A stretch of DNA of 64,000 nucleotides from an uncultured bacterium (lineage in GTDB: Bacteria; Bacillota; Clostridia; Oscillospirales; CAG-272), in assembly GCA_945920215.1 (NCBI GenBank), contig CAMEJM010000007.1:598-64597 (forward strand), in the 5' to 3' direction. Of this stretch, positions 1 through 19,337 are shown in pieces. The notes under the pieces are model-generated. The model was not told the DNA's origin and did no database searches. It saw only the letters and a program-made list of their open reading frames with translations. A program made the position numbers and the translations under genes. The number at the start of each line of letters is the position of its first letter. The first letter of the stretch is position 1.

Positions 1-405
1 AGCCAGATCAACGCCGCTGCCTCTGCCGCCTTGGTTGTCTCCCAAAACAACGATTCTTGCCGCAACCGTCTCTCCCGCGACCTTGACGGCAACAGAGGAA
101 ACGGGAGCCGCGTTATGCGTGACAACATGCGTGTTGGTAATCGCAAACCCATCCGGGGAGATAAGCAATCCGGAACCGGCAGAGGAACCGCCCTGAAAGG
201 TGCAATTGATTTCGAGAACACCGCCGATGCACTTTTCGTAAATGTCGGCGCCGCCGCCCATCGCCGTCGCTTTCTGCGTCACAAAACTCTTGGGCGTCGG
301 AGCAAAATCAGCGGCGGAAAAGGTCTTTCCGCAGTAAACGCAGCGGTAAGAATCCGGCGCCACCTTCTGCGTACCGCCGCCGCACAGTAAACATTTATAG
401 TCCAT
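1..405 (-). CDS. Zn-ribbon + trypsin-like (chymotrypsin-fold, DegP/S1-type) serine protease; N-terminal 135 aa only, gene runs off the window
   Basis: Absent from the ORF track (no stop in window). My translation from ATG at 405 reads MDYKCLLCGGGTQKVAPDSYRCVYCGKTF (CxxC..CxxC ribbon), then ...SSAGSGLLISPDGFAITNTHVV (protease His-box). A GAGGAG SD lies 8 nt upstream and overlaps the stop of the upstream gene. Confidence 0.7.
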   Translation of the reverse strand, partial: MDYKCLLCGGGTQKVAPDSYRCVYCGKTFSAADFAPTPKSFVTQKATAMGGGADIYEKCIGGVLEINCTFQGGSSAGSGLLISPDGFAITNTHVVTHNAAPVSSVAVKVAGETVAARIVVLGDNQGGRGSGVDLA

Positions 406-417
406 GTTTTTGACTCC

Positions 418-2523
418 TCAATTCGTATTGTCGGCTTCCCACTTTTTCAGGCGTTCGATGTCCGCGCGCTGTACCGTACCGCACACGGATTCCAGCGCAG
501 TGTCAAAGTCTGCCTGACAGATATATTTCTCGTTTGTGTTGATGCCGCGGATAATGGAGATTTCCTCGATTCTATCCATCAGATTGGATACGTCCGCACC
601 GTTGAAGCCCTCTGTCTTCTCCACGACCTCATCGGTCTGCAAATCGTCTCGGATGGTGACAATTCCCTTTTGCGCGATTTTATCGAGGCGGCTCTGTATC
701 ATGTACCGCCTTGCGCCCGCGTCCGGTAATCCCACATAAATACGCGTGCCGAATCTGCCCGGGCGGACAAAGGCGCTGTCAATATCCCACGGTTTATTGG
801 TCGCGGCAATCAGAAACAGGATATGCCCGGTATCTTTCCCGTAGCTCTCAATCCCCTGCAGCTGTGCCAACAGCTCGGAGCGGAGCTGTTTCGCATACTG
901 CGAGCGCGTGTCTTTCGGCGAAATGGAATCCATCTCGTCAAAATAGATCACCGAAACAGGGAAACGCCGCGCCTGTGCAAACAGTGCCCGCACGGCTCTC
1001 TCGGACTGTCCCGCCCCCTGATGTAACAGGTCGGACGGCTTCACGGCGCAGAATTTCGCGCCGATCTCATTCGCGATGGCGGCGGCGATCATGGTTTTCC
1101 CCGTGCCGGGAGGGCCGTACAGCAGCAGCCCGCCGCCGTTCCGCTTGACGTAACCGTCAAACGCCTCCGGATTCTTGAGCGGCAGAAGCACTTTGATCTT
1201 CACGGCTTCTTTCACGCTCTCAAGCCCTGCCACGTCGTCGAAGGACACAACCGGCAGGCGATCCCATTCAAAGCGGAACTCATCCTCGTCTCCGTATGCG
1301 TCCCGCAGCAGCTTCTCCTCCGGGGAATCCGTCTTGACCTCCTCCGGCTTCTGCGGCTTGCTCTCCGGCGCCTTTTCGGTGGGCTTCTCCGTACGCCCGG
1401 TGCCGGCAGCCGTCGACTGCTCTCTGATGCTTTGCGGCAGATCCGCCATCTCAATGGTGGTCATCTCGGCATCGGTCGGGTTCTCCATGTCCGCGATTCG
1501 CTTGGATTGTATGGTGACGATGGTTTCAAAAATGTTCCGCACGCTCCGCGCATTCCCGAAATTCTTATCCCGCTCCGCATATGCCCGGCGGAAATATTCC
1601 TGCATTGTCTTTGCCGCCGTTTCGTTGAGCACATACTGATTTTTGTTTAAGAAGCCTGTGAAAATGCGATAGAGTTCCTCTCCCGTATAATCGGTAAAGC
1701 GTATGTATGTCTTGAAGCGCGAACGCAAGCCGGGGTTGGAATCGATGAATTTCTCCATCAGTTCGTCGTACCCCGCGACAATCACTACCAGATTGGAGCG
1801 ATTGTCCTCCATGGCTTTCAGCAGAGTGTCGATTGCCTCCTGACCGAAGTCATTGCCGCCACCGCCGGCAAGCGTGTACGCTTCATCAATGAACAGCACG
1901 CCGCCGATGGACTTTTTCACCACTTCCTGCGTTTTGAGAGCGGTCTGACCGACATATCCCGCCACAAGGTCGCTGCGGTCCACCTCTACCAGGTGTCCGT
2001 CGCTCAAAATACCGAGCGCGCAGTAAATCTGTGACACAATGCGGGCAACCGTGGTTTTCCCCGTTCCGGGGTTCCCCGTAAACACCATGTGATAGGACAT
2101 TTCGGGAACCGACAATCCGCGCTCCCGGCGCAGCTTGAACACCTTGATCTGATCCACCCAGTCGGATACCTGCTGTTTGACGCCTGCAAGTCCCTCCAGC
2201 TGAAACAGATTCCGGAGAGCTTCTTCAAGAGAAATCTTATCGTTCTCCTGAATCCTGACGTCCGACAGCACGCATTCTTCCTTGCTGCTCGCCTTTTTGC
2301 CGGATTGCGCAGGGATGCTGTCCGCCATCTCAATCAGGCTCTTCGCGCGCGCATATCTGCTTGCTTGCAGATTTCCCGCGCTGTCCTTCGCCATCTTCAG
2401 CATTTGTTCGGCGGCGAGCATATAGTATTTCTTTGCCAAAACATAGTCGCCTTTGCCGTAACTTTCTTTGGCCTTTTTGCTGTACAGCTCAAATGTTTCA
2501 TATAACAGGTCCATGCTTGCCAT
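418..2523 (-). CDS. MIT-like N-domain + tandem AAA+ ATPase (CbbX/SpoVK-type AAA, then classic Vps4/katanin-like AAA)
   Basis: 701-aa ORF with an AAGGAG SD. The N-terminal helical segment AKESYGKGDYVLAKKYYMLAAEQMLKMAK..ASRYARAKSLIEMADSI is MIT-like. Walker A 1 is FTGNPGTGKTTVA, with LFIDEAY and SpoVK-like flanks. After a low-complexity PEK linker comes SFDDVAGLE..LLLYGPPGTGKTMIAAAIANE..VIYFDEMDS..ATNKPWDIDSAFVRPGRF. The C-terminal helix is ADIERLKKWEADN. Confidence 0.8.
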   Translation of the reverse strand: MASMDLLYETFELYSKKAKESYGKGDYVLAKKYYMLAAEQMLKMAKDSAGNLQASRYARAKSLIEMADSIPAQSGKKASSKEECVLSDVRIQENDKISLEEALRNLFQLEGLAGVKQQVSDWVDQIKVFKLRRERGLSVPEMSYHMVFTGNPGTGKTTVARIVSQIYCALGILSDGHLVEVDRSDLVAGYVGQTALKTQEVVKKSIGGVLFIDEAYTLAGGGGNDFGQEAIDTLLKAMEDNRSNLVVIVAGYDELMEKFIDSNPGLRSRFKTYIRFTDYTGEELYRIFTGFLNKNQYVLNETAAKTMQEYFRRAYAERDKNFGNARSVRNIFETIVTIQSKRIADMENPTDAEMTTIEMADLPQSIREQSTAAGTGRTEKPTEKAPESKPQKPEEVKTDSPEEKLLRDAYGDEDEFRFEWDRLPVVSFDDVAGLESVKEAVKIKVLLPLKNPEAFDGYVKRNGGGLLLYGPPGTGKTMIAAAIANEIGAKFCAVKPSDLLHQGAGQSERAVRALFAQARRFPVSVIYFDEMDSISPKDTRSQYAKQLRSELLAQLQGIESYGKDTGHILFLIAATNKPWDIDSAFVRPGRFGTRIYVGLPDAGARRYMIQSRLDKIAQKGIVTIRDDLQTDEVVEKTEGFNGADVSNLMDRIEEISIIRGINTNEKYICQADFDTALESVCGTVQRADIERLKKWEADNTN

Positions 2524-2544: not shown

Positions 2545-3111
2545 TCACTCGGACATTCTCTTCTTCAGTGCTTCCAGTTCCTTTTCAATCATCGCGTCGG
2601 TGCTGTCCGCGTCTCCCGCGCCGTTGGAAAGCAATCCCTCCAGTTCCGCGCGATCCTCGGCGGAAGCGGGAGCGCCGGAAGCAAAGGACGCCTCGGTATC
2701 GTCCATAAACTGCTCCATCTGCTCGGTCTGCATCTCGATGCCCATCATCGCCTCACCGAACTGCTCCTGCACGCGGCGGAACTGCTTTTCGTTGGTGAGC
2801 TTCATCATATCCCGGCTCAGATCCCCCATCCCCTTAAGGAACTCGGTGGTCATCGCCGCCATATCCTTCATCTGGGAGGTGATCTCAAAGTTCAGCTTCA
2901 TCTCCGAAATACGCTTGATCTGCATCATGGTCGTACGCAGCGCCGTCAGCGCCAACTCATACTGTGCCGTCAGCCCTTTTTTCTTGGCTTCTTTCCCGGC
3001 TTCAATGTAGCGGAGTTTCTGCTCCTCAAGCTTCTGAATCTGTTTGTTCATCGAGGTGATGGTCTGTTTGACCTTCATTCTCTTCGCCAGTTCTTTTTTT
3101 GTGGAATTCAT
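2545..3111 (-). CDS. ESCRT-III/PspA-superfamily protein, Vps2/CHMP2-like, with acidic tail and MIM1-like C-terminus
   Basis: 188 aa with an AAGGAG SD. It has a basic coiled-coil N-half. The core MTTEFLKGMGDLSRDMMKLTNEKQFRRVQEQFGEAMMGIEMQTEQMEQFMDD resembles the CHMP2 alpha3-alpha5 region from memory. The tail is DADSTDAMIEKELEALKKRMSE. Confidence 0.6.
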   Translation of the reverse strand: MNSTKKELAKRMKVKQTITSMNKQIQKLEEQKLRYIEAGKEAKKKGLTAQYELALTALRTTMMQIKRISEMKLNFEITSQMKDMAAMTTEFLKGMGDLSRDMMKLTNEKQFRRVQEQFGEAMMGIEMQTEQMEQFMDDTEASFASGAPASAEDRAELEGLLSNGAGDADSTDAMIEKELEALKKRMSE

Positions 3112-3123
3112 GTCGGATGCTCC

Positions 3124-3717
3124 TTAACTGTTTGTAGTATCGGTTTTCGCCGCGGCGGCGGTGGAGGACTGCTCCTGTTCATCGGCGATCTGCTCCTCTG
3201 TCTCAAACATGGCAAGCAGCGCGTCGTCGTCCTGCCCCACCCCGTAAATCTCCGAGCTCGGCTCATACGCCTCCTCGATGGAGCGGAAGGTCTCATCCGC
3301 GTCGGTTAATACCTTTTCAGCCGAAACGCGGGTGTTCAGCGCCTGATTGAGGAAACGGGCAAGTCCCTTTTGGTCGCCGAGCAAGCCTCCGAGAGACTGC
3401 TTGGGCGTTTTCGCAAAAAACTGATTGTCATCGATCGCGCGCTTGAGCTTCTGCAACATCTGAATGTTGTACATCAGATACATGATTCGCTGTACGTCCT
3501 GCGCGCGCTCGGCTTTCAGGGCGTTGACCCTCTTTGCCCAAAGCAGCTTGACGTCCCGCACGGTTTCCGTTCTGCCTTTTTGCATCAGCGCGTCGATCTT
3601 CTTCTGCTTTTCGTCCAGCCCTGCCTCGAGGTCTGCGGATTCCTTTTCCAGCTTGCAGATGGAATCCACCACTTCCTCGCGGGTCAGCTTCTGAAATTTA
3701 CTCTTAAAAGGCCACAT
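3124..3717 (-). CDS. ESCRT-III/PspA-superfamily protein, Snf7/CHMP4-like
   Basis: 197 aa with an AAGGAG SD. The helical hairpin region is LDEKQKKIDALMQKGRTETVRDVKLLWAKRVNALKAERAQDVQRIMYLMYNIQMLQKL. The acidic C-terminus is GQDDDALLAMFETEEQIADEQEQ (compare the CHMP4 DEDELMAELEELEQ-type tail, from memory). Confidence 0.6.
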   Translation of the reverse strand: MWPFKSKFQKLTREEVVDSICKLEKESADLEAGLDEKQKKIDALMQKGRTETVRDVKLLWAKRVNALKAERAQDVQRIMYLMYNIQMLQKLKRAIDDNQFFAKTPKQSLGGLLGDQKGLARFLNQALNTRVSAEKVLTDADETFRSIEEAYEPSSEIYGVGQDDDALLAMFETEEQIADEQEQSSTAAAAKTDTTNS

Positions 3718-3728: not shown

Positions 3729-4058
3729 TTATTCAACCGTTTTTCTTTCGGCGATTGCAATGTGAATGTCTTTCAGCAGCCCCTGCGCCTTTTCGTTCGC
3801 AGTCTCGTCCTTGCATTTGATAAGGGCGATTTTGAGGTCTTCAAGCAAATTTTTGATTTTTTTATCGCAGTCATACACTTTAGACTTTGCGGAGGGCATC
3901 AGGTATTTCAGCTCTTCCTGCAAATCCCGCAGCGCTGTGCGGAAGTTCTCGTCCTCGGTCTGTGCAATCAGGACTTCGACTGTTTTCGCGTTGACCTCCA
4001 CAAGGTCATAATCCTGCCGGTTTGCCTCAGCGGCTTTTTTCTTCTTGAAAAACAACAT
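3729..4058 (-). CDS. Small all-helical hypothetical protein (109 aa), operon member
   Basis: GAGGAGG SD. It sits 25 nt after the upstream gene and 11 nt before the next. Charged heptad-like composition; no family recognised. Confidence 0.5.
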   Translation of the reverse strand: MLFFKKKKAAEANRQDYDLVEVNAKTVEVLIAQTEDENFRTALRDLQEELKYLMPSAKSKVYDCDKKIKNLLEDLKIALIKCKDETANEKAQGLLKDIHIAIAERKTVE

Positions 4059-4083: not shown

Positions 4084-5109
4084 TCAATTCAGTTTTGTTC
4101 CGCACGCACTGCAAAAAGCCGTGTCGCCGGGATACGTCTTGCCGCACTTGGGGCAGGTCACGGTCGCAGCGGCAAGCTTCTTACCGCAGCCGGGGCAGAA
4201 TGCCGCGCCGTTTTCATAGCTGTGACCGCAATTGGGGCAGAATGCGCCGGCCGCGGTTGCGCCGCCCTTGCTTCCCACCACCTTCAGGACCTCGTAGTAT
4301 GCCGCTTTGTCCTCCTGCTCGAGGCGCTTCAGATACATCTCGCGCTCCCACTGCTTGTCGTCCAGGCGCTCCAGTTCTGCAAGATATTCTTTCATCTTGT
4401 TGCGCTGCTGGATTTCGTCCGCAACATTCTCGATCTTCTCCATATCCTCGGCGGAAATATTGAACTTTTCGATGATGAAGTCCACCAGACCGATGCCCCA
4501 GTCCCTCTCAAACTTCTCGCTGAGCATCTTACCTACCTGGACCGCAATGGTCTTGCGGTTTGCGTCAAACTGGTCGTAGGTCAGCTCCTCCTTGGCAACC
4601 ACAGTCAGGAAAACGTCCGCGAAATCGTTGACCACAGCTGCCGAGAAACGGTCGCGGAACCGCTCCAGATCGAATTCCTTGGTTGCGCCCACCACCTTGC
4701 GGAAGAACTGGTTGGCGTTGGTGATGCTGATGCCGAACTGCCCGCGCGCACCCACCTCGATCACCTTGTTGCTGATTTTATCGCGGTAAGTCACCTTATC
4801 GGGGGTCCCCCAACGAATGAGAACGCTGGTTTCTTTCGGCACATAGATGATCTCGACCGAAACCCCGTTCTTCCATGCTTTCATCTCTTCTTTGCTTTCG
4901 AAAACGGGATATGTACCGCTCTGGTAAACACGGAAATCCCCGCCGCCCTTGATCACGAACGCCATGTGCGTAAAGGGCACCTCGAACATTGCGTCCTTGG
5001 TCGTCACCACGTCGCCGACGCGGACAAACAGAATGCTGTTGTCGTTCACAGACGCGTGACAAATATTTTGCTCAAAACGGATGATTTGCTGTTTTTTACT
5101 GCCGAACAT
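4084..5109 (-). CDS. SPFH (stomatin/prohibitin/flotillin-like) protein with C-terminal double Zn-ribbon (COG4260, B. subtilis YdjI-like)
   Basis: 341 aa with an AAAGGAG SD. The body matches the virion-core/SPFH-like family as I remember it. The C-terminus is FCPNCGHSYENGAAFCPGCGKKL..TCPKCGKTYPGDTAFCSACGTKL (4 x CxxC). Confidence 0.75.
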   Translation of the reverse strand: MFGSKKQQIIRFEQNICHASVNDNSILFVRVGDVVTTKDAMFEVPFTHMAFVIKGGGDFRVYQSGTYPVFESKEEMKAWKNGVSVEIIYVPKETSVLIRWGTPDKVTYRDKISNKVIEVGARGQFGISITNANQFFRKVVGATKEFDLERFRDRFSAAVVNDFADVFLTVVAKEELTYDQFDANRKTIAVQVGKMLSEKFERDWGIGLVDFIIEKFNISAEDMEKIENVADEIQQRNKMKEYLAELERLDDKQWEREMYLKRLEQEDKAAYYEVLKVVGSKGGATAAGAFCPNCGHSYENGAAFCPGCGKKLAAATVTCPKCGKTYPGDTAFCSACGTKLN

Positions 5110-5232: not shown

Positions 5233-8200
5233 TTATTTGAGAGACGCGGGATCATTGTAGAACCCAATGAGCCACAGCACTTCCTTAAAAGTAATCAAGC
5301 CTTTGCCAACCGCAACCTTGTAATATCGGAACGGGAATGCGTTGAACACCTCAAGCGGTATGTAGTCCTTGAAGTCGTCGTAGGTGTACAACCCCCACTC
5401 TGCAATATCCGCAGCCATCAGGGCTTCGTCGTACTTCATATTTTCGTCGTACGCAAACAGATTCACCATACCTGCCGACAAGGTCAGCATACGGTCCGCA
5501 ATTAGGTTGATATGCCATACGGAGGCAGGGTTGTAAACCTTCATGAATTCGTTTGTTACGGTGACTTCGTTGAGAACAACGGTTCTGCTGACGGCTTCCC
5601 CGTTCTCATACGCCACGGATACAAACCTGTGTCCGACAAACCCGTCGGCGTTGTCTGCGTTGATATACACGTATTGATTCAAGTCCCTGTCAAACAACCC
5701 GTGCTCGCCGACAATCCGAAGCTCGCCTCCGTCGGAGAAGGACAGATTGACGACGTCGCGAAGAGCTGCTTCTTCTCCCGCGTGTACATTGACCAATATC
5801 GGTGAGGCCTCATATCTGCCTGTTTCGTGGTTGAAAACAAGCAGAATATCACCTGTCTGCAACTCCTCTACCGCTTTGGTGGTCCCGTCCGCCAGCATAA
5901 TCCGCGTGCCCTCGGCAAGACAGCTGGTATCCCAGCTGGAAGCGCTCACCGTTGTGTTTTTATTCAACGTAAAGGTGTATGGATTGCTGACGCTGTTTCC
6001 GTTCACGGAGAAAGACTGCCCCGAGACATCCGAATAAGAGAAGGTCGCGCTTGCAGTCACGCGAGTGCCGAGCGGCAATGTACCGTCCGTTTTCCACTGA
6101 GACTTCAGTGCTTCACTCTCAAACTCGAGCATCACTTGCGCATAGCTCTCCGAAATTTTCAGAGTGCACCACTGTTCTTCCGAGAACTGCGGAACAGCGG
6201 TAACCCAATGGTCGGGGGTATACCACTGCCCCTCCCGGTACAGTTCACCGTCTATCATCCAACCCTCGAAAACATACTTGACGATATAGTCGTTTTGCGA
6301 CGAATCCGCTTTGGTATCCGCGGGAAGTTTCAGGCGCTCGCCCTTATTCACATATTCCATGGCGATAGTGCCGTCCTCACACTCGAACCGGACTTTGTTT
6401 TTGCTCACCAGATTGGGAATTGCCTGAGAGAGATTCAACGAAACAATGACAAGCGATAACAGAGCCACAAGCACCGCAGCTTTTCCGTACTGCTTTTTAT
6501 TCTGCTTGACATACGATTCATATGTCTCGTTGGAGGACATACCGTAATTCAGTCCCAGCGCAGTTCCTACTGCCGCAATGCAGAACACAATATAGAAGAA
6601 TCGCGCCAACCCTACCGAGAGGCCTCCCGTGGCATTGATTTTATCCATCAGGCCGTGCGACTTGGTGAATACATCAATCCCGATCAGAACGGCAAGCACA
6701 GCGGGGAGAAAGAAAATGCAGGATCTGACAACCCGCCCCCTAACGTAGCGTTTTCTTGCTTTTTCCTCGCTGGTTCTGTTTCTTTCCCCGGCTGCTGCCA
6801 TGCGATGATTGAGATCATCCGGTGAACAAGTGCTGTCCCCAACGGTAACGTAGAGCAGATTTTCGCAGGAAGAAAACACATTCAATCCCAAGTTTCTAAC
6901 ATTCTTCGGAATGTTTACGGTTGCAAGTTTCCGACAGTAGGCAAACGCCTCGTTTCCAATGCTCCTGACACTACCTGGTACGGTAACGGAAACCAAATTG
7001 GTGCAGTCGAAAAACGCTCGGAATCCGATATGTGTCACTGTGTCCGGAATCGTAACGGAGCGCAGAGTTTTGCAACCTTGAAACGCCTCGGCGCCGATTC
7101 CCACAACGCGCTTGCCGTCCACATGGGAGGGAACTGTGAAGTCACAGTCAGAGCGCCGGGAAAGGGCTTCTCTCACGCCGCCTATGATTTCCACGCCTTC
7201 CCCCTTATTCCGGTATTTCAGCGTGCGCATCAGTTCCGCCTCGACCGCCAACACGCGAGAGTCACCGTTTCCAATGGACATATAGTATTCGTATTGGAAA
7301 TCGCTGGCGCAGTTTTTGGCGTTCTGGAAGTCCTGCATATCGTACAGCTTGTTGTGCCGCTTCAGCAACGCCAGGTCACTGTCCGCTTTCATGTGGCATT
7401 TCAGAAGTCCCCAGTGCGCCTGCGCGGATGTCTCATCCCGCGCCAGATACTCCTTGAAGTAAACCTCTGCATTCTTGTAGTCTCTTTCTGCCACGCACAG
7501 CTCTGCCAATTCCATGAGGAATGCGTTGACTCTTTCTTCCTCACCCAAAGCGTCATATGTGCCGACAACGGTTTCCACAAATATCTTCGCCGCTTTTTTA
7601 TTATATGAAACCTGATACTTTACCATCCGTTCCAGGCTTCCCATCGCCGCCGAGTTCTGCTTCTTATAGTCACAGATGATTATGCGCTCTATGATTTCAG
7701 CCGGCGTCAGTTCCGACAGATGCTTTGTCGCCGCATCCTCGGCAGGCGTTGCCTCCAGTGAAAACGCGGTTCGTTCGATCTCATCCGTTTTCAGGCGGCA
7801 CTCCAACAGATGCAGATAATCCTTGCCCTGCCGCTCTGCGGATGCCAGTTCCTCATAGTATTTCTGCGCCAAATCATAATGCCCGCACCGCCGCAGCGTG
7901 TTTGCATATTTCCTCATGACCGACAGACATTGCATACGGTTTTCCTCGGAGAACAACCGCCTTGCTTGAGCAAAGACCGATTCGCTCTCCTTTGGACTCG
8001 TCTCCGCATTGAAACAACAACGTCTCAGAAGTGAAGTCAACGCCACATCCACACGCTTATCGTCCAGATATTTCAGTATCTCATCATACAGCGGCTGGAT
8101 CTTCGCCCACTTCTCATCTGCGTCAAGACAGGCGAGCATTGCGTCCACGCATGCCCATGAGAATTGCTCGTCATTGGAGCATTCAATGGCGCGATGAAAT

Positions 8201-9489
8201 TCTGCAAAAGGAATACTCTTGGCTTTGAAAATCGTATCTGGCAGCTTGTCTTCCAACGAACACTTCACCATACAGAGGAACCTGCCCCAATGAGCTTCCG
8301 CATTATTCTGATTCATGCGCAGCACATTGTCGTATTCAATCATCGCATTTTTGAAAGACGAATGATTGCGCTGGTTGCGGGCACTCTGTAAGGCTCTTTC
8401 TTCCCCGGCGGAGATCTGAATCTCGCTCCCGCCTTTACCGCCGATGACCACGCGCTCCCGCGTTCCGCTGTATTCAAAGCCTGTCGCGTCATTCGTAAAG
8501 TCGGTCTGCACCGTCCGCTTCTTGATTTTGGAGGCAAGCCCCTTACTGCTCTTGACAAAGCTCAGCTTCGACTCAAGCTGACTGAACATATCCCCCTTGA
8601 ACATATCCACGCTCGGCAATTGCTTTTCTGCCAGCGCCGGGGGAAGCACCGGAAAGCTGTGGTTGTATACGTAGATCAGGGACACCTTATTCTTTTTGCC
8701 CTTGTCCATGTAGTAGAGATACCTTTTCCACTCGTTCTCTACCCACTGTGCCTCCAGATATTCCTTTTTGCTCCCCAGCAATATCATCGCCTGCGAGGTT
8801 TGCAGGGCTTTCAGAATCCGCGGCTCGTATTTTTTCCCCTCTATCTCGTGGTCCTTTCCGATCGATTCCGGAGAGAAAAACACACGGTATTTGCCTTTCA
8901 GGTGTTCATATATCTCGCGTGCCTTTTCATAGTCGTCAGTGTAAACCGTCCGGACCTCGCCATCCGCCCTCGTCACCTGTTCAGACATCTTGAATGAAAT
9001 GAAAATGTCATAGGAGGTCTCTTTCGCCACCAACTCAAAAAACTCTTTGAGCAGCGCATCCAGTTCCCGCCCCTTTTCCTCGTAGTAATTTCTGTCTTCT
9101 TCACTCGGCGCGTACTTCAGCGCGTTTGTGTAATAGGGGTTTTCCAGCACCGAGATCCTCTCGTCGTAGGTGTAACTGAAAAAGGTCGGTTTGGTTTCAC
9201 CCGTCTCCTTTTCCTTTACATACACCACTCCCAGCGACGACAGCAGCGCCTGCCAGCTTGCTTCACTGCTCTCCGGCTGCTTCTCAAGCAAGGCCTTGCA
9301 CAATTCCTCTGCCTTGATGAACTCCCTGATCTGACGGCGGTTTGTAATGTCCGCGAGCTCCGCAGAGCAGGACTCCGCCCCGCTCCGATACGCTCTCCCG
9401 CAATACACGCAGGTTGGGATGCCCGTCCTTGCATTCGGTTTTAACTCCCCACCGCAGGTCAAACATTTTGTGATTACTTCCTGTCCCAT
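5233..9489 (-). CDS. 1418-aa multidomain protein: Zn-ribbon / TIR / TPR-like helical repeats / BspA-type LRR / 3 TM helices / B-repeat-like ectodomain / Hint domain + 70-aa tail
   Basis: Start moved to ATG 9489 (GGGGAGAG SD 6 nt upstream), giving MGQEVITKCLTCGGELK..CVYCG. TIR: YDIFISFKMSE..YRVFFSPESI..AMILLGSKKEYLEAQWVENEWKRY. LRR: VGIGAEAFQGCKTLRSVTIPDTVTHIGFRAFFDCTNLVSVTVPGSVRSIGNEAFAYCRKL. TM segments lie at aa ~921-941, 956-980 and 1003-1022. Hint: CLAEGTRIMLADGTTKAVEELQTGDILL..IVGEHGLF..VYNPASVWHINLIA. Confidence 0.8.
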   Translation of the reverse strand: MGQEVITKCLTCGGELKPNARTGIPTCVYCGRAYRSGAESCSAELADITNRRQIREFIKAEELCKALLEKQPESSEASWQALLSSLGVVYVKEKETGETKPTFFSYTYDERISVLENPYYTNALKYAPSEEDRNYYEEKGRELDALLKEFFELVAKETSYDIFISFKMSEQVTRADGEVRTVYTDDYEKAREIYEHLKGKYRVFFSPESIGKDHEIEGKKYEPRILKALQTSQAMILLGSKKEYLEAQWVENEWKRYLYYMDKGKKNKVSLIYVYNHSFPVLPPALAEKQLPSVDMFKGDMFSQLESKLSFVKSSKGLASKIKKRTVQTDFTNDATGFEYSGTRERVVIGGKGGSEIQISAGEERALQSARNQRNHSSFKNAMIEYDNVLRMNQNNAEAHWGRFLCMVKCSLEDKLPDTIFKAKSIPFAEFHRAIECSNDEQFSWACVDAMLACLDADEKWAKIQPLYDEILKYLDDKRVDVALTSLLRRCCFNAETSPKESESVFAQARRLFSEENRMQCLSVMRKYANTLRRCGHYDLAQKYYEELASAERQGKDYLHLLECRLKTDEIERTAFSLEATPAEDAATKHLSELTPAEIIERIIICDYKKQNSAAMGSLERMVKYQVSYNKKAAKIFVETVVGTYDALGEEERVNAFLMELAELCVAERDYKNAEVYFKEYLARDETSAQAHWGLLKCHMKADSDLALLKRHNKLYDMQDFQNAKNCASDFQYEYYMSIGNGDSRVLAVEAELMRTLKYRNKGEGVEIIGGVREALSRRSDCDFTVPSHVDGKRVVGIGAEAFQGCKTLRSVTIPDTVTHIGFRAFFDCTNLVSVTVPGSVRSIGNEAFAYCRKLATVNIPKNVRNLGLNVFSSCENLLYVTVGDSTCSPDDLNHRMAAAGERNRTSEEKARKRYVRGRVVRSCIFFLPAVLAVLIGIDVFTKSHGLMDKINATGGLSVGLARFFYIVFCIAAVGTALGLNYGMSSNETYESYVKQNKKQYGKAAVLVALLSLVIVSLNLSQAIPNLVSKNKVRFECEDGTIAMEYVNKGERLKLPADTKADSSQNDYIVKYVFEGWMIDGELYREGQWYTPDHWVTAVPQFSEEQWCTLKISESYAQVMLEFESEALKSQWKTDGTLPLGTRVTASATFSYSDVSGQSFSVNGNSVSNPYTFTLNKNTTVSASSWDTSCLAEGTRIMLADGTTKAVEELQTGDILLVFNHETGRYEASPILVNVHAGEEAALRDVVNLSFSDGGELRIVGEHGLFDRDLNQYVYINADNADGFVGHRFVSVAYENGEAVSRTVVLNEVTVTNEFMKVYNPASVWHINLIADRMLTLSAGMVNLFAYDENMKYDEALMAADIAEWGLYTYDDFKDYIPLEVFNAFPFRYYKVAVGKGLITFKEVLWLIGFYNDPASLK

Positions 9490-10194: not shown

Positions 10195-10416
10195 ATGTTC
10201 CTCCCGATGTCAGTATTATATCTTACGGACAAGCCGTCTGATACCGCACTCTGATATTGCTCTGAAACTAAAATAACGGATAGACAGCCCGGTGTCAATG
10301 CATATCCGCACTTTTTGACGAACCGGGGAGAAAAAATCGGAAGAACAAACAAATCCGATACCGGAATCCGTACATTTTTCACAAAAGAGGTCTTTCGGCA
10401 AGATGTCTGACGCGCC

Positions 10417-10710
10417 TCAGCGGAATTCTTTTTCGGTTGCCTTATCGTCGAGGGGGATTTCGAAATCGTCGGGATTCTCCTCCATTTTGTGGGCGATCCG
10501 TTCGGTTTCTTTCTTTTCTTTCTCCTCCTCGCACAGCTGCCAGAACAGATATCCGCCGCCCACCGCCTCAAACGCGGAGACAGCCAGAAACGCCTGTGCC
10601 AGACTGCGGCGCTTTGCCGCCTGCAAAAGGAACAGGATAAAGAACGTCAGCGCCTGCACCAGCAGCGCAACCGCCGTGATCAGGCGGGATTTTCTCAGTA
10701 ACTTTCCCAT
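10417..10710 (-). CDS. Small membrane protein, hypothetical
   Basis: 97 aa with two TM segments and an acidic tail. It starts 14 nt after the prfB stop. Confidence 0.5.
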   Translation of the reverse strand: MGKLLRKSRLITAVALLVQALTFFILFLLQAAKRRSLAQAFLAVSAFEAVGGGYLFWQLCEEEKEKKETERIAHKMEENPDDFEIPLDDKATEKEFR

Positions 10711-10723
10711 ATCGGAGCCTCCT

Positions 10724-11833
10724 TTATTTTTTGGCGTTCATGGTCAGATATGCGTTGATAAAGCCGTCGATGTCTCCGTCCATGACCGCTTGAATGTTGC
10801 CGTTTTCAAAGCCCGTGCGGGTGTCCTTGGCGAGCGTATAGGGCATGAATACGTAGGAACGGATCTGCGCCCCCCATTCGATGTTGGTTTTCACACCCTG
10901 AATATCGGATATTTTGTCAAGGTGCTCCCGCACTTTGATTTCCATCAGCTTGGAGCGCAGCATCTTCATGGCAGTCTCTTTGTTCTGCAACTGCGAACGC
11001 TCTGTCTGGCATCCTACCACAATGCCGGTGGGCAGATGGACAATGCGGATGGCGGAGTCGGTCTTGTTGATGTGCTGCCCGCCGGCGCCGCTCGAACGGT
11101 GCGCCGTGACTTCAATATCCTCGGGGCGGATTTCCACGCTGTTGTCATCCTCAAATTCCGGCATCACCTCCACCGATGCAAACGAGGTCTGCCGTCTGCC
11201 GGAGGCGTCGAACGGCGAGATGCGTACCAGCCGATGCACGCCGTTTTCGCTCTTGAGGTAACCGTATGCCCACGGCCCTTCGATCATAATCGTGGCGGAT
11301 TTGAGGCCTGCTTCGTCTCCGTCCAGCCAGTCGATGAGTTTGACGTTGTAGCCGTGCGCTTCGCCCCAGCGGCAGTACATACGGTACAGCATGGACGCCC
11401 AGTCCTGCGCCTCGGTGCCGCCGGCGCCGGGGTGGAACGAAAGAATGGCGTTGTTGTAGTCGTACTCTCCTGTGAGCAGAGTCTCAAGGCGCATACGCTC
11501 GGCTTCTTTTGCGATGAATTCCACCTCCGCGCGTATTTCGTCGACCGTGCTCTCGTCGTTTTCCTCGATCGACATTTCGATCAGCACGCCCGCGTCCTCA
11601 TAGCGGCGCACCAGCGCTTCATATTCCTCGATAGTGTCTTTGTGCTGTTTGAGCTTCTGCAGGATTTTCCCCGATTTTTCCTGGTCCGACCAGAAATCGG
11701 GGGCGTAGGTCTTGGCTTCCAACTCCTTGACCTCCTCCGCCATGGCGTCAATATGCAACGATTCCCGCAGTTGGCGCACGGGCTCCTCCAGGGTTGCCAG
11801 CTGTCTTTTCGCTTCTTCGAGCGCGATAATCAA
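10724..11833 (-). CDS. prfB: Peptide chain release factor 2
   Basis: SPF tripeptide (ISPFDASGRRQTSFA) and GGQ motif (SGAGGQHINKTDSAIR). Start set at TTG 11833, 7 nt after GGGAGGA. There is a continuous frame, so no +1 frameshift site. Confidence 0.9.
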   Translation of the reverse strand: MIIALEEAKRQLATLEEPVRQLRESLHIDAMAEEVKELEAKTYAPDFWSDQEKSGKILQKLKQHKDTIEEYEALVRRYEDAGVLIEMSIEENDESTVDEIRAEVEFIAKEAERMRLETLLTGEYDYNNAILSFHPGAGGTEAQDWASMLYRMYCRWGEAHGYNVKLIDWLDGDEAGLKSATIMIEGPWAYGYLKSENGVHRLVRISPFDASGRRQTSFASVEVMPEFEDDNSVEIRPEDIEVTAHRSSGAGGQHINKTDSAIRIVHLPTGIVVGCQTERSQLQNKETAMKMLRSKLMEIKVREHLDKISDIQGVKTNIEWGAQIRSYVFMPYTLAKDTRTGFENGNIQAVMDGDIDGFINAYLTMNAKK

Positions 11834-11861
11834 GGTTGTATCCTCCCAAATGCTTACACAG

Positions 11862-11890
11862 ATAGTATGGACGCGCACGGCGCGGGTCAA
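11862..11890 (-). promoter_or_regulatory. Candidate promoter for prfB
   Basis: On the minus strand: TTGACC, 17 nt, TACTAT. Confidence 0.45.
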
Positions 11891-11960
11891 ACGGCGGCGC
11901 TATTCATTTAATATTATCATATCTTTTCGGAGTTGTAAAGGGTGACGCCGTTATTTTTCC

Positions 11961-12036: not shown

Positions 12037-12237
12037 ATGGTTGTCACGAAAGATATGATTATCGGAGACGTGCTGGACGTCGCCCCCGAAACCGCAGAGT
12101 TCTTCTTTGAGATCGGGATGCACTGCCTCGGCTGCCCCCATTCCCGCGGGGAAAGCATTGAGGACGCCTGCCTCGTACACGGCGCAGACCTCGACGCTCT
12201 GCTCGAAAAAATCAACGCCGCAGTGGCAGATAAATAA
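12037..12237 (+). CDS. DUF1858 / hybrid-cluster-protein-associated redox disulfide domain protein
   Basis: 66 aa containing GMHCLGCPHSRGESIEDAC..HG.DLD.LL, the family signature. Confidence 0.8.
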   Translation: MVVTKDMIIGDVLDVAPETAEFFFEIGMHCLGCPHSRGESIEDACLVHGADLDALLEKINAAVADK

Positions 12238-12238
12238 A

Positions 12239-12940
12239 ATGCCGAAAACCGCTCTCGATGCGCGCCTGCGCGCGGCGGCGGAGTATGTCAGGCAGGAGGC
12301 GTACTTTGCCGATATCGGCACCGATCACGCTTACCTGCCTGTTTTTCTCTTACAGGAGGGAAAGATCCGGCGCGCCGTCTGCGCCGATATTGCGGCGGGT
12401 CCCCTGTCCCGCGCCCGGAAAACCGTGGAAACGGCGGGGCTTGCCGACCGCGTCCTGCTCCTGCAAACCGACGGCCTGCAGGGGTTGGAAGCACTGGGAC
12501 TGACCGACATTGCGCTCTGCGGCATGGGCGGAGAGCTGATTGCCGCGATTTTGGACGCCGCGCCCTTTGTGCGCGACCCTCGGATCCGGCTGATCCTGCA
12601 ACCCATGACCCGTGCGGCGCACCTGCGGCGGTATCTTGCCGCCAACGGCTTCGCCGTGGAGCGGGAAAGCCTGTGCCGGGCGGCGGGCCGGCTCTACGCC
12701 TGCCTGTGCGCGCATTACACGGGGGAGCCGTATTTCCTGACCCCGGCGGAAGCGGAGCTGGGATATTATGAAGTGCACGAGGGGCGGTCCGACCCGCTCT
12801 TTCCCGCCTATCTCGCCGCTCGGATTCAAACGGTGCGGCGCCGCGTGATCGGGCAGCACGCCGGCGGAGGCGACGCCCGCGAAAACGAAACGCTACTCAA
12901 AGAAATGGAGGCGCTGTATGACCGTCAAGGAGCTTTATGA
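12239..12940 (+). CDS. trmK: tRNA (adenine22-N1)-methyltransferase TrmK
   Basis: DIGTDHAYLPVFLL..CADIAAGPL..GMGGELI motifs. Start at ATG 12239, directly after the upstream stop. The longer ORF-track start overlaps the DUF1858 gene. Confidence 0.8.
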   Translation: MPKTALDARLRAAAEYVRQEAYFADIGTDHAYLPVFLLQEGKIRRAVCADIAAGPLSRARKTVETAGLADRVLLLQTDGLQGLEALGLTDIALCGMGGELIAAILDAAPFVRDPRIRLILQPMTRAAHLRRYLAANGFAVERESLCRAAGRLYACLCAHYTGEPYFLTPAEAELGYYEVHEGRSDPLFPAYLAARIQTVRRRVIGQHAGGGDARENETLLKEMEALYDRQGAL

Positions 12941-13676
12941 CCGCCTGTCGCTGACCTTCCCCGACAGCCTGCGCTGCGACTGGGACAGGGACGGACTGAT
13001 GCTGTGCGCCAACCCCGCAAAACCGGTCGGGCGCGTGCTGACCGCTTTGGACGTCACCCCCGCCGCCGTACAGGCGGCGATCGAGGCGGAAGCGGATGTG
13101 ATCATTTCCCACCACCCCGTCTTCTTTCACCCCCTGCCCGCACTGACCCGTACGGTGCCGGCGGCGGACAAGGCGCTCAACCTGCTCTCCCACGGCATTT
13201 CGGTCATGTGCTTTCACACCCGTGCGGACGCGGCGCCGGGCGGCGTCGGCGATCTGCTCGCCGATACCATGGAACTCGCCGACGTTGCAAGCGCGGGAGA
13301 GAACGGCATTCTGAAAATCGGCGTCCTGCCGCGGCACCTGACCGCCATGGAGCTTGCCGCGCAGGTGAAGGACAAACTCGCAACGCCTGCCGTGACGGTG
13401 GCGGACGCCGGAGCGCCCATTCGCTTCCTCGCCGTCTGCGGCGGGGAGGGCGACGATATGATAGAAGCCGCGAAAGCGGGCGGCGCGGACGCGCTTCTGG
13501 CAGGGCGCGTCGGATACCACAAAATGCAGGACGCCGCCGAGGCGGGCTTGACCGTTCTGGAAGCCGGGCACTGGTACACCGAGATCGCCGTGACCGCCCT
13601 GTTTGCCCGTCTTGTCGAGGAAGCGTCCGGCGCCGAAGTCATACGGTTTACCGAGCCGCCCGTGGCTGTGGTGTGA
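12918..13676 (+). CDS. Nif3-family dinuclear metal centre protein (YqfO-like)
   Basis: DWDRDGL, VIISHHPVFF and C-terminal GHWYTE motifs. The trmK-nif3 adjacency matches B. subtilis yqfN-yqfO. Confidence 0.85.
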   Translation: MTVKELYDRLSLTFPDSLRCDWDRDGLMLCANPAKPVGRVLTALDVTPAAVQAAIEAEADVIISHHPVFFHPLPALTRTVPAADKALNLLSHGISVMCFHTRADAAPGGVGDLLADTMELADVASAGENGILKIGVLPRHLTAMELAAQVKDKLATPAVTVADAGAPIRFLAVCGGEGDDMIEAAKAGGADALLAGRVGYHKMQDAAEAGLTVLEAGHWYTEIAVTALFARLVEEASGAEVIRFTEPPVAVV

Positions 13677-15785: not shown

Positions 15786-15810
15786 TAAGTGTTGCACTTC
15801 ACTTGACAAT

Positions 15811-16572
15811 TCACTCTGCAAAATACACTTCGCATCCCAATCGTTTTTCTATGTTTGCCCAGTTCGCAAACTCGGAGCCACGATCACAGGTAATCGTTTT
15901 TACTAATTCGCTCGGAAAACGAGACAATATTTCCACAATTGCGTTTTCCATGGTGTCTGCTTTTCTGTCCGGGATTTTCACTGCTATGTAAAACCGTGTT
16001 TTTCGTTCTGCCAAGGTCGCAAAACAAGCTTTGCTCTTTCCTTGTCCGCTTACCACTGTATCCGCTTCCCAATGCCCCGCTTCTTTTCGGCTGTATACGC
16101 TCTTGTCTCTCTTCCGTATGGACTTCCCGAGATTGTATTTACCTCTGGTTTCTTTCCCCGCGTGTGTCTTTCCTTTTCTTCGGAGGACTTTCAGGTTCCC
16201 GTTCACCAAATACTTTTCGTATATCCATCGGTAGATGGTTCTCCATGAAGGTACCTTTACCGGTGCGGCTGCACACGCGATCTGTTCCGGCGACCATGTC
16301 GCTTTCAGTTTCTCGTTTATATATTGAATTGTCTCTTCGTTCCAATACATTCCTCGGTGACAGTATGAACGCCGTAGCATTTATTTCTTTTGTGCTGTAT
16401 GGGGATAGTAGCTCGGTATCTCATACATATGCGTGCAGTTCCGACGCAGTTCCCGTGACACCGTGCTCACGCTCCGCCCTATCATTTTCGCTATTTCTCT
16501 GTAACTGTATCCCTTTTTGTAATATTCCCGTAGACAACAACGCTCTTCTATGGTAAGATGTATATAGCTCAT
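15811..16572 (-). pseudogene. IS30-family transposase with an in-frame TAA and 3' truncation
   Basis: The HTH part MSYIHLTIEERCCLREYYKKGYSYREIAKMIGRSVSTVSRELRRN ends ..AQKK-TAA-MLRRSY in the same frame. The catalytic D (HWEADTV) and D (TCDRGSEF) are present, but the ORF stops at VYFAE before the third acidic residue. Confidence 0.8.
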
Positions 16573-16650
16573 ATCGCTTTTCCCCTGTTTCTTGTTTGTG
16601 TGGTAACTACATTATAACAGGTTTGCGGTATGAGTGTTTTCTTTTTTCAT

Positions 16651-16721
16651 GTGTTGCACTTGATAGTATAATTCACCGTTTTTTCTTTTTCCAAGTGTTG
16701 CACTTGATAGTATAATTCACC
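16651..16721. repeat. Two perfect 27-bp direct repeats (gtgttgcacttgatagtataattcacc), 17-bp spacer
   Basis: Copies at 16651-16677 and 16695-16721. A related copy gtgttgcacttcacttgacaattcac lies at 15789-14 in the same orientation. Confidence 0.9.
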
Positions 16722-16727
16722 CTGATT

Positions 16728-16757
16728 TAAAAAATGCCAGCACAAAAGTGCTGGCAT
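16728..16757 (-). terminator. Rho-independent terminator after the DUF4926 gene
   Basis: atgccagcac / gtgctggcat form a 10-bp stem with a 4-nt loop, followed by TTTTT on the minus strand. Confidence 0.7.
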
Positions 16758-16939
16758 TTCGATAAGATGATATGCATATCACAAATTAACATATTTGTCA
16801 ATAGGTTTTTGCAATAATTATTGAAAATCTATTGCAAATTTTGAAAAATATGATATAATAAGTATACGGTTAAGTGGTGTGCTTTGGCATATCACCCTGC
16901 ACCAGGAAGCTATTGGCGTAGTTTCTTGGTGCTTTCTTG

Positions 16940-17128
16940 TTATTTGTATGATTTGGCGAGTTCTATTACGTTTTTAGGAGTGGTAACTACATCGAGTGTG
17001 TCTCCGTCTTTGTTGAAAAACTCAACTTCATACATTGAATCGTCGTATTTGTGGACAATGGTTCCTTCTGTGCCCATAGGAAAGCCTTGGAACTCTCGAA
17101 CCAAACGCACAACATCTAATTCTTTCAT
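16940..17128 (-). CDS. DUF4926 domain protein (62 aa)
   Basis: MKELDVVRLVREFQGFPMGTEGTIVHKYDDSMYEVEFFNKDGDTLDVVT matches the family pattern. Start at ATG 17128 with an AAGGAGG SD. The longer ORF-track start overlaps the upstream gene. Confidence 0.7.
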   Translation of the reverse strand: MKELDVVRLVREFQGFPMGTEGTIVHKYDDSMYEVEFFNKDGDTLDVVTTPKNVIELAKSYK

Positions 17129-17138
17129 AAAAACCTCC

Positions 17139-17540
17139 TTAATCGGGATATACCGTAATAATCTTGTATGTGACATGACCGTGATCCTTTTGGATAACCA
17201 CGACCACTTTTGCCGATACGCTTTGTCCGTTTTTACCAACCAATGTAGTGTGATATGTGTGTTTCACTCCGTATTGCGTGGTTTCGGTTTTTGTTGGTGT
17301 CTTTACAAGGATTGACTTGGTCACATTTTCATGAAAGAGTTTGGAATCGCTTTGCGTATAGCCCAAAACATCTCTCATAAACTTCGCTTTAGCAGCACCA
17401 ACGGGATGATTGGGGTTCAGCAGGTATCCCTCCGTTTTTTGCTGACTGTATTGCAAGTCCGAAGTGTTTTTGATAGGTGCAGAACTGTTATTGTTTGCAC
17501 CTTTAGTGTTTGAATAATTTCCGGACATACCTGCGCCCAT
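17139..17540 (-). CDS. DUF6883 domain protein
   Basis: YLLNPNHPVGAAKAKFMRDVLGYT ... TQYGVKHTY...GKNGQS...VVVIQKD...ITVYP matches the family as I recall it. TAATG overlap with the upstream stop. Confidence 0.6.
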   Translation of the reverse strand: MGAGMSGNYSNTKGANNNSSAPIKNTSDLQYSQQKTEGYLLNPNHPVGAAKAKFMRDVLGYTQSDSKLFHENVTKSILVKTPTKTETTQYGVKHTYHTTLVGKNGQSVSAKVVVVIQKDHGHVTYKIITVYPD

Positions 17541-18211: not shown

Positions 18212-18423
18212 GTGTGTTTTAACCTTTCTCCTCGTAACGAGGCAATGTGATTTTGCTGTTAGTCAATAGTTAAGAAAGGGTAGGCTAAAACACTCGTTTC
18301 GGTTAAGTGGTGTGCTTTAGCATATCCTGTCTATATTGATTGTGTGAGATTCATCAAGCGTTGTTGGCGCAACCCTTGATATTGCGTAAAATCATAAGGC
18401 ATCACTCCTTTCAAAGTGCTATT

Positions 18424-18948: not shown

Positions 18949-19310
18949 TAACTATCCTCCCCGCCGAGAAGTTTGATGATGGCTGCTGCTGTGGCTTCAT
19001 CAAGATTCTCAAAAGAACGCTGAAACTGAACCGCCAATCTTCTTTGGGTGTTGTTCGCGGTTGTCAAATTGATTTTCATCTGCGTCTTAGAATGTTCAAC
19101 TGCGTCAATCAATTCTGCTTGTTCGATGGGTGATAAATTATAGTGTTCAATCAACACAGGAATCCATTCTTCAGGCACATTTCTCTTGCCACTTTCAACT
19201 GTCGAGATAAAAGGGAGTTTGACACCGAATAATTTAGCAGTATCTCCCATAACCTCGTGGTGTTTTATTCTTTGTATTCGCATGAATTCTCCGAATTTCG
19301 TATATCCCAT
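18948..19310 (-). CDS. XRE-family HTH transcriptional regulator (ImmR-like)
   Basis: FGEFMRIQRIKHHEVMGDTAKLFGVKLPFISTVESGKRNVP helix-turn-helix. It is paired with ImmA. Confidence 0.85.
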   Translation of the reverse strand: MGYTKFGEFMRIQRIKHHEVMGDTAKLFGVKLPFISTVESGKRNVPEEWIPVLIEHYNLSPIEQAELIDAVEHSKTQMKINLTTANNTQRRLAVQFQRSFENLDEATAAAIIKLLGGEDS

Positions 19311-19337
19311 AATAAATCTCCTTTCTCTGTTAGTAGT

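Follow-up and report, generated by a model that had tools for sequence, protein, structure and literature searches.

Liu et al. (2021; PMC8281802) assigned PspA and Vipp1 to the ESCRT-III superfamily and left open the question of an equivalent ATPase, and a 2025 review writes that an ATPase which, like Vps4, regulates ESCRT-III ‘appears absent in bacteria’ (PMC7619361). Makarova et al. (2024; PMC11188069) described proteins with SPFH, coiled-coil and Zn-ribbon segments in archaeal ESCRT loci and reported that no ESCRT components can be identified in bacteria. Ravi et al. (2024; PMC11237479) found Vps4-like ATPases that had been transferred to some bacterial phyla without Snf7, as well as pairs of PspA and a protein with two AAA+ copies, the N-terminal one inactive; in Bacillus subtilis, the SPFH protein YdjI brings PspA to the membrane (PMC8581546). 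Here we analyse a stretch of 64,000 nucleotides from an uncultured member of the Clostridia (GenBank assembly GCA_945920215.1, contig CAMEJM010000007.1, positions 598 to 64,597), referred to below as the window, and in particular a gene for a double AAA+ ATPase and the operon in which it lies. Neither of the two arrangements of Ravi et al. matches the window system, and a targeted literature search, incomplete in coverage and thus compatible with an earlier description elsewhere, returned no description of the operon.

We conclude that the window protein is probably the ATPase of a bacterial ESCRT-III/Vps4-like module, and that a membrane-remodelling module inside a conflict system is the probable setting. 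The features that carry this argument are the following.

418..2523, minus strand, stop codon included: MIT-SpoVK-D2 double AAA+ ATPase of 701 amino acids (open reading frame and domain matches)
2314..2523, minus strand: MIT-like three-helix domain, residues 1-70 (AlphaFold2, Foldseek, profile comparison)
1429..2226, minus strand: D1, SpoVK/CbbX/EccA-type AAA+ domain, residues 100-365 (NCBIfam, Pfam and PDB matches)
1942..1962, minus strand: D1 pore loop AGYVGQT, with the aromatic residue kept
1267..1428, minus strand: P/E/K-rich variable linker, residues 366-419 (conservation profile)
421..1266, minus strand: D2, classical AAA domain from a separate bacterial clade, residues 420-701 (profile models, pairwise scores, tree, motifs)
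1000..1023, minus strand: D2 pore loop 1, HQGAGQSE, non-aromatic
427..477, minus strand: C-terminal helix VQRADIERLKKWEADN, Vps4_C-like (Pfam Vps4_C)
2545..3111, minus strand: N1, Snf7/CHMP-type ESCRT-III homologue of 188 amino acids (hhalign, synteny)
2554..2589, minus strand: putative MIM1-like motif IEKELEALKKRM, N1 residues 175-186 (conservation, alignment with MIM1 motifs)

As in the Vps4/CdvC systems, the ATPase possesses an MIT-type three-helix N-terminus and a classical AAA cassette that bears the signatures ATN-x-PW-x-ID and RIY[IV] and ends in a helix that may be of Vps4_C type, and it adjoins a Snf7/CHMP-type ESCRT-III homologue with a C-terminal motif resembling the type 1 MIT-interacting motif (MIM1). 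Unlike those systems it has two AAA cassettes, the SpoVK/CbbX-type D1 lying between the MIT-like domain and D2; its D2 has RPGRF in place of RRRF, lacks the beta-domain, carries a non-aromatic pore loop 1 and falls in a separate bacterial clade; and the host is a bacterium, in which SPFH, TIR and protease genes belong to the same operon. The combination of an ESCRT-III-superfamily protein with a Band_7_1/YdjI-type SPFH protein is reminiscent of B. subtilis pspA-ydjGHI (PMC8581546), and that of a bacterial ESCRT-III-superfamily gene beside a two-AAA+ protein is reminiscent of the PspA dyads (PMC11237479). In contrast to the PspA systems, however, N1 is Snf7/CHMP-like and gives no PspA signal; and whereas the N-terminal classical AAA of the dyad is inactive and accompanied by no MIT domain, the window D1 is SpoVK-type with Walker A, Walker B and pore loop intact.

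The ATPase gene

An earlier note on this DNA, made from the letters alone, had proposed a Vps4 analogue with a SpoVK/CbbX-type AAA+ domain inserted between an MIT-like domain and a Vps4/katanin-like AAA+ domain. The open reading frame (ORF) that it named exists at exactly 418..2523, on the minus strand, which the note had left unstated; it begins with ATG and encodes 701 amino acids. All the motifs quoted at the time are present, and GNPGTGKTT is located at residue 150, LFIDEAY at 210, GPPGTGKT at 470, YFDEMD at 527, ATNKPW at 574, VRPGRF at 586 and ADIERLKKWEADN at 687. The full-length architecture recurs in more than 120 database clusters (63-99% identity, mostly metagenome-assembled genomes of Clostridia), which are labelled only ‘AAA family ATPase’ or ‘SpoVK/Ycf46/Vps4 family’, and in about 38 species-level genomes of Christensenellaceae and other uncultured Clostridia from animal guts. 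The Walker A, Walker B, sensor and arginine motifs of both cassettes are kept among 158 aligned members. Because of this spread and of the preserved catalytic motifs the ORF is not a chance one. The domain combination had been called unusual, which holds for the literature and not for gut Clostridia, where it is common.

N1, an ESCRT-III homologue with a MIM1-like tail

The gene immediately upstream of the ATPase encodes N1. An hhalign comparison of a diverse N1 family with six verified ESCRT-III proteins (CHMP2A, CHMP3, CHMP4B, CHMP1B, Snf7 and Vps2) gave a match of 94% (P=1.4e-7) over 160 columns, in which N1 residues 2-166 align to CHMP2A 13-174 and thereby to the entire alpha1-alpha5 core. 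The real alignment scores 52.8 against 16.6 +/- 2.4 (maximum 24.3) for 60 block-shuffled templates; reversed templates yielded P=0.33-0.38 and the reversed query 0.41, and all controls, reversed and block-shuffled, scored between 12.7 and 24.3. In the reciprocal search, in which a hidden Markov model (HMM) of six eukaryotic ESCRT-III sequences was run against 4,573 ORFs, the N1 family accounted for 16 of the 20 best matches. Divergent N1 members from other operon types were needed before this signal appeared; the shallow orthologue-only profiles of N1 and N2, the next gene upstream, found nothing against the PDB or each other and reached only P=4e-4 against ESCRT-III. Neither Pfam PspA_IM30 nor Pfam Snf7 recognises N1, the roughly 883 N1 and 475 N2 clusters in databases are labelled only as hypothetical proteins with no Pfam domain, and phage and plasmid collections contained no N1 relatives. 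Escherichia coli PspA, which the eukaryotic ESCRT-III profile itself barely detects (P=0.063), gave no profile signal with N1 or with N2, and for N1 this absence argues for a Snf7/CHMP-type rather than a PspA-type protein.

In the N1 orthologues a variable acidic linker is followed by a conserved I-E-K-E-L-E-x-L-K-K-R-M at the extreme C-terminus. Among 27 orthologues I175 is invariant, and E178, L179, L182, K183 and K184 are at least 90% conserved. The segment IEKELEALKK aligns with the MIM1 motifs of CHMP2A (LEERLKNLRR), Vps2 (LQARLNTLKK) and CHMP1B (LSQRLARLRD), and the N1 tail thus appears to be a MIM1-like amphipathic motif. A MIM-bearing ESCRT-III-like substrate had been predicted from the ATPase; as far as sequence goes, the adjoining N1 bears this out, and N1 is the predicted substrate or partner of the enzyme.

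Operon types

Upstream of the ATPase and on the same strand lie N1, N2, N3, N4 and then a large TIR protein, an order that is kept in about 36 genomes. This arrangement, type A, reads SPFH-Zn-ribbon, N3, N2, N1, (TIR), MIT-SpoVK-D2, Zn-ribbon-trypsin, (TIR). Type B, found in about 11 genomes, comprises N1, an N1-D2 fusion, MIT-D2, SPFH and a separate gene for a SpoVK-type AAA protein that sometimes has an MIT domain of its own, and type C, found in two genomes, reads (SPFH), N1, MIT-D2, ... TIR. An iterative ORF search of the fetched loci placed an N1-like gene immediately upstream of the D2-type ATPase in every architecture found, and N1 is fused to the N-terminus of D2 in about 11 genomes as well as in P0124 and P0125. 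Single-cassette MIT-D2 relatives have the size of Vps4 (P0140, 427 amino acids; P0215, 393 amino acids), and the recurring core is an MIT-D2 protein, which has the Vps4 layout, beside an ESCRT-III-like gene. Since MIT-D2 proteins devoid of D1 occur and the SpoVK module has its own gene in some variants, the window ATPase is a fusion of modules that are separately encoded elsewhere, and the description of the SpoVK domain as inserted was apt.

Two further arrangements were observed. In type D (L048 and L049) an SPFH gene precedes D2-type AAA genes, of which there are three or four, each separate, and proteins of about 195 amino acids, missed by the N1 HMM, match the eukaryotic ESCRT-III HMM directly (E=4e-5 to 3e-3). 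The P0215 locus, L076, encodes an MIT-AAA protein with a canonical DKWQG pore loop amid genes for NYN, ThiF/E1-like, WYL/WCX-like, TIR and DUF4011 helicase proteins, a gene set that looks like a defence island.

The MIT-like N-terminus

The AlphaFold2 model of the N-terminal domain, built from a 27-sequence alignment, consists of three helices (residues 4-24, 27-47 and 51-69) with a predicted local distance difference test score (pLDDT) of 94-98. When this model was compared with the PDB using Foldseek, the best matches were nearly all MIT domains, including those of VPS4A/B, a Sulfolobus Vps4-like protein, spartin, MITD1, katanin p60 and calpain-7; the alignment with MITD1 has a target TM-score (TMt) of 0.80 and a root-mean-square deviation of 1.3 Å, and that with VPS4A a TMt of 0.76. 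The family profile of the domain aligns in register with the MIT domains of Vps4, VPS4B, katanin and spastin (P=0.0037; reversed control 0.21), and in a split relative (L079) the homologue of the domain matches Pfam MIT over its full length (E=0.0012). The confident three-helix model and the MIT domains at the top of the Foldseek list support the MIT-like assignment made earlier.

Two dissimilar AAA+ cassettes

D1 contains Walker A (GNPGTGKT) and Walker B (FIDEAY) motifs. Its HMM scores are 296 bits for TIGR02881 (SpoVK), 260 for EccA and 244 for CbbX, all below the equivalog cutoffs of 423-467 bits; AAA_lid_6 scores 60.9 bits against a cutoff of 24.3, and D1 aligns with CbbX (PDB 3zuh) over 263 residues with E=1.3e-56. 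The TIGR02881 score together with AAA_lid_6 upholds the SpoVK/CbbX-type label, and on these scores D1 is a member of the SpoVK/CbbX/EccA family and an orthologue of none of the three. Like them it combines an AAA domain with AAA_lid_6 and has VAGY and GxRSRF motifs; unlike them it stays below the equivalog cutoffs, is fused to an MIT-like domain and a second AAA cassette, and lies in a gene context unrelated to sporulation, ESX secretion or Rubisco. The P/E/K-rich linker that follows is present as previously described, with a length of about 55 residues (approximately 366-419) instead of the 45 given. At its end (residues ~409-419, window 1267..1300, minus strand) we observed a conserved aromatic motif, [FY]xFxWDxLP in the linker and [FY]xFxW[DS]x[LIT]P across the D2 clade. 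In all proteins of that clade (also in P0124-P0141), MIT-D2 and N1-D2 relatives included, it comes directly before D2, irrespective of what the N-terminus contains, and it could be a ring-docking arm or a pseudo-substrate.

D2 matches Pfam PF00004 and AAA_lid_3, followed by the terminal helix, and has an intact Walker A (GPPGTGKT), Walker B (YFDEMDS) and second region of homology (SRH; RPGRF). Its scores against the NCBIfam HMMs of CDC48 (168 bits), PAN (158.5), CdvC (152.9, aligned to the C-terminus) and FtsH (147.9) are too near each other to assign the domain, and whole-protein and D2-only rankings against PDB and NCBIfam were dropped because two-domain targets sum the scores of their stretches. 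D2 was instead compared domain by domain with references verified by exact look-up and with E. coli FtsH taken from the genome. Pairwise scores are 171 bits for katanin, end to end, 158 and 147 for Vps4, 142 for VCP-D2 and 141 for VCP-D1, followed by spastin (137), PAN (130), FtsH (120), ATAD1 (116) and Rpt6 (114). An HMM of the D2 clade gives katanin 184.6, VCP-D2 179.0, Vps4 175.9 and FtsH 138 bits, so that VCP-D2, a cassette of a type II AAA unfoldase, scores about as high as katanin and Vps4. In a crude neighbour-joining tree (300 bootstraps; archaeal Vps4 not among the references) D2 and its relatives form a clade of their own, supported by 99% for the core and 91% when the relative with the DKWQG pore loop is added, which lies outside the meiotic references (69%) and outside the VCP/PAN/FtsH group; in 254 of the 300 replicates it branches as sister to the whole set of references.

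The signatures of D2 are a mosaic: ATNKPWDID and RIYV are as in Vps4 and katanin, RPGRF as in CDC48-D2/VCP-D2, PAN and FtsH, and the SRH reads VRPGRF instead of the xRRR[FL]/LRRF type. No insertion corresponding to the Vps4-specific beta-domain was found in the D2 lid, where the alignment with Vps4 breaks and that with katanin runs through, to reach the last residues of the ATPase. The terminal helix scores 20.3 bits with Pfam Vps4_C, for which the cutoff is 21.3, and exceeds it in relatives (P0121, 37.8; P0127, 27.4; P0128, 23.9; P0126, 23.0). On this evidence D2 appears to represent a distinct bacterial lineage of classical AAA domains, roughly as close to the meiotic clade as to CDC48-D2 and clearly unlike FtsH. 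Of the ‘Vps4/katanin-like’ label in the earlier note, the part that stands is that katanin and Vps4 are among the closest references; membership of the meiotic clade falls, with D2 outside it in the tree. A D2 grouped firmly with FtsH or CDC48, together with an N-terminus devoid of a three-helix bundle, had been named as the outcome that would speak against the proposal, and this was checked and is not what we found.

The two rings differ in their pore loops. Pore loop 1 of D2 reads (H/N)QG(A/V)G and is aromatic in none of the 158 aligned members, nor does it conform to the K-[WYF]-x-G of the meiotic clade (verified as KWMG in Vps4 and KYRG in katanin). A QGxG loop is also found in the type B D2 that is fused to N1, and a QGxG D2 is always paired with an MIT-bearing AAA cassette that has an aromatic loop, CYVG in type B and GYVG in the window D1. 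D1 is therefore the likelier threading ring, since the D2 loop has no aromatic residue and the D1 loop is intact; in this respect the earlier interpretation needs correction, D1 being the likelier motor. Two cassettes per chain are also a property of p97/CDC48/VAT and NSF, and in p97, too, one ring has a non-aromatic pore loop (KLAG in VCP D1, verified in sequence P0406). Unlike in p97 and NSF, the N-domain is MIT-like and not a double-psi barrel and the cassettes are from different AAA+ families, and unlike in p97 the degenerate ring is the C-terminal one.

Other genes of the operon

The remaining genes of the operon in the window are as follows.

3124..3717, minus strand: N2, helical-hairpin protein of 197 amino acids (AlphaFold2, Foldseek, profile)
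3729..4058, minus strand: N3, conserved protein of 109 amino acids (synteny)
4084..5109, minus strand: N4, 341 amino acids, SPFH domain (Band_7_1, YdjI-like), coiled coil and double zinc ribbon (Pfam)
5233..9489, minus strand: Zn-ribbon-TIR-TPR-LRR_5-transmembrane-Hint protein (Pfam, gene call)
1..405, minus strand, cut by the window edge: Zn-ribbon and trypsin-like serine protease, first 134 codons (translation, match to a gene of 261 amino acids)

N2 is probably a second, more divergent ESCRT-III-like subunit. It begins with MWPFKSK, reminiscent of the MWSSLFGW of Snf7, and ends in an acidic DDALLAMFETEE tail. The AlphaFold2 prediction, built from database homologues, shows a hairpin (helices 13-50 and 54-96, pLDDT 80-89) and is poor for the remainder (mean pLDDT 65). 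About 20 of the 50 best Foldseek matches belong to the ESCRT-III superfamily (Vipp1, CdvB/CdvB2, Asgard ESCRT-IIIB, CHMP1B and CHMP2A-CHMP3; E 0.17-2.5), and the N2 profile aligns in register with that of ESCRT-III plus N1 (P=0.0016; reversed 0.28). N3 was considered as another ESCRT-III/N1 relative and rejected, its profile signal being no better than reversed controls. We nevertheless record, for the window protein and its orthologues (L005, L006, L007, L012, L017 and L034), that the N-terminus, M-x-[LF]-F-[KR]-K-K, resembles the N-terminal membrane motif of CHMP3 (MGLFGK), that several species have a predicted N-terminal transmembrane helix instead, and that one orthologue has a weak ESCRT-III HMM match (E=0.0028).

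N4, the conserved first gene of the operon, matches Band_7_1 (52.6 bits), Zn_Ribbon_1 and DZR in Pfam. The ORF of the TIR protein is open to 9645, and its likely start is Met53 at 9489, which corresponds to a gene call of 1418 amino acids; Pfam identifies TIR_2 (35.7 bits), BspA-type LRR_5 (83.3 bits), TPR and a weak Hint match, and comparison of the TIR domain with PDB sequences gave no useful match. The protein also has about three transmembrane segments and a C-terminal Hint-like module similar to the modules for self-cleaving release in polymorphic toxins. The ZnR-TIR proteins (ZnR denoting a Zn ribbon) adjoin the operon in most loci. On the other side, the protease gene starts 12 nucleotides downstream of the ATPase stop codon and matches a Trypsin/Trypsin_2 gene of 261 amino acids on contig JAIFIP010000246.1; in at least 20 loci the ATPase is directly followed by such a protease. 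The Zn ribbon at the N-terminus of the protease is similar to those found in N4 and the TIR protein.

Genomic setting

The operon is chromosomal and conserved. On contig JAIFIP010000246.1 (GCA_019972995.1) it lies between prfB/trmK and the spoIIA operon/groESL, with the protease and a second TIR-LRR_5 protein downstream of the ATPase and the spoIIA operon about 3 kb downstream. Further genes of the window are listed below.

about 10724..11890, minus strand: prfB (PCRF/RF-1; gene calls)
12107..12940: trmK (gene calls)
12918..13676: NIF3-family gene (gene calls)
15811..16380: rve integrase fragment, in a low-GC island
17540..18211: DUF4417 gene, in the same island
18424..18948: IrrE/Peptidase_M78-like gene, in the same island

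A plus-strand ORF of 502 amino acids at 10403..11911 is probably spurious, as it has no Pfam match and prfB occupies the minus strand there. The low-GC island at window positions ~15800..20000 (GC fraction 0.42 versus ~0.58) is probably what is left of a mobile element, with no relation to the operon.

Proposed mechanism and alternatives

In the mechanism that we propose, N1, probably together with N2, would polymerise on the cytoplasmic membrane at a platform formed by the SPFH protein N4, and the MIT-like domain of the ATPase would dock on the exposed N1 tail. The ATPase would form a stacked double hexamer, in which D1, with its aromatic pore loop GYVG, would thread and extract subunits, so that the polymer is disassembled or remodelled. 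D2, with its non-aromatic QGAG loop, would hydrolyse ATP and serve as an assembly and ESCRT-III-engaging ring, comparable to p97-D1 or NSF-D2. To judge from the neighbouring TIR, protease and LRR genes, the module may serve conflict or cell death involving membrane damage or repair, and not routine housekeeping. In its full form, that of a Bacillota machine of ESCRT-III/Vps4 type with MIM-tailed Snf7/CHMP subunits, disassembly by an MIT-AAA ATPase, an SPFH platform and TIR/protease wiring to immunity or cell death, the proposal is tentative, and we think it slightly less probable than its negation.

Several points weigh against an ESCRT-III/Vps4-like module of this kind. The resemblance of the N-terminal domain to MIT is one of fold, with sequence support that is weak though consistent: Pfam MIT has no match to the window ATPase in a profile search, and the Foldseek E-values of the MIT matches are weak (0.05-0.7), as is normal for a bundle of 70 residues. 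D2 resembles Vps4 in its layout and in part of its signatures and still does not count as a Vps4-family domain in the strict sense. The conserved Arg of MIM1 is replaced by Glu in the N1 motif, the free-standing N1 proteins of type B lack a MIM1-like end, and the assignment of N2 is weak. The choice of D1 as the threading ring draws on the pore loops alone. The case for a defence role comes from the neighbours only, and PADLOC recognised no known anti-phage system in the locus, N1-N5 being without a match.

The same neighbours have an alternative explanation, in which the ATPase is a regulator or chaperone of a TIR/protease abortive-infection system that assembles, activates or resets the effectors, and the coiled-coil proteins are adaptors or sensors. 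TIR proteins do flank or interrupt the operon in most loci, the protease follows the ATPase in at least 20, Zn ribbons are common to N4, N5 and the protease, divergent relatives lie beside NYN, ThiF, DUF4011 helicase and TIR genes, and the models of two defence ATPases, IetA and TRIP13, give scores with D2. The similarity to both models, however, is generic to AAA proteins; the IetA/IteA scores are 88-117 bits, with the cutoff at 510, and membership of the IetA/IteA group was rejected because they fall so far under it. This explanation also leaves unaccounted for the ESCRT-III homology and MIM-like tail of N1, the invariant or fused presence of N1 and the SPFH link; it is compatible with an ESCRT-III/Vps4-like module and not exclusive of it, and we consider it unlikely as an account in its own right.

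A housekeeping system for envelope stress or membrane repair in the manner of PspA-YdjGHI, with the TIR, protease and LRR genes as mere neighbours, would accord with the YdjI-family SPFH gene (Band_7_1) beside ESCRT-III-like genes, as in B. subtilis, and with a locus that is situated between housekeeping genes (prfB/trmK and spoIIA/groESL) and absent from phage and plasmid collections. Yet TIR and protease genes recur in types A, B and C in varied positions, including between N1 and the ATPase, which is hard to ascribe to chance, and only some Clostridia and Bacilli have the system, a patchy distribution; we regard this possibility as quite improbable. Least credible, at a very low probability, is a remodeller like SpoVK, EccA or CbbX, active in sporulation, secretion or enzyme activation, that has acquired an extra AAA domain and whose coiled-coil neighbours are unrelated. 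The best D1 scores are indeed those of SpoVK, EccA and CbbX, and the spoIIA operon is close by, but all three scores remain under the equivalog cutoffs, no ESX or Rubisco genes are nearby, and stand-alone SpoVK-like matches (L054-L074) have no N1/N2/SPFH context. The strict linkage to N1 and the fusions argue for a dedicated partner.

Implications

The locus is a concrete, widespread and experimentally tractable candidate for a bacterial Vps4-type partner of ESCRT-III, combining an MIT-bearing AAA ATPase with an SPFH partner and with a genetically locked Snf7/CHMP-type protein whose tail is MIM1-like. The natural split and fused variants (MIT-D2, N1-D2, MIT-SpoVK and MIT-SpoVK-D2) dissect the roles of each ring. 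The link to TIR and protease genes hints that bacteria possess an equivalent of the interplay that, in eukaryotes, joins membrane repair by ESCRT to cell death. If the proposal is true, the coupling of a dedicated AAA ATPase to ESCRT-III through MIT and MIM would not be limited to archaea and eukaryotes, and its bacterial form could be ancestral, the product of an ancient transfer, or independently elaborated.

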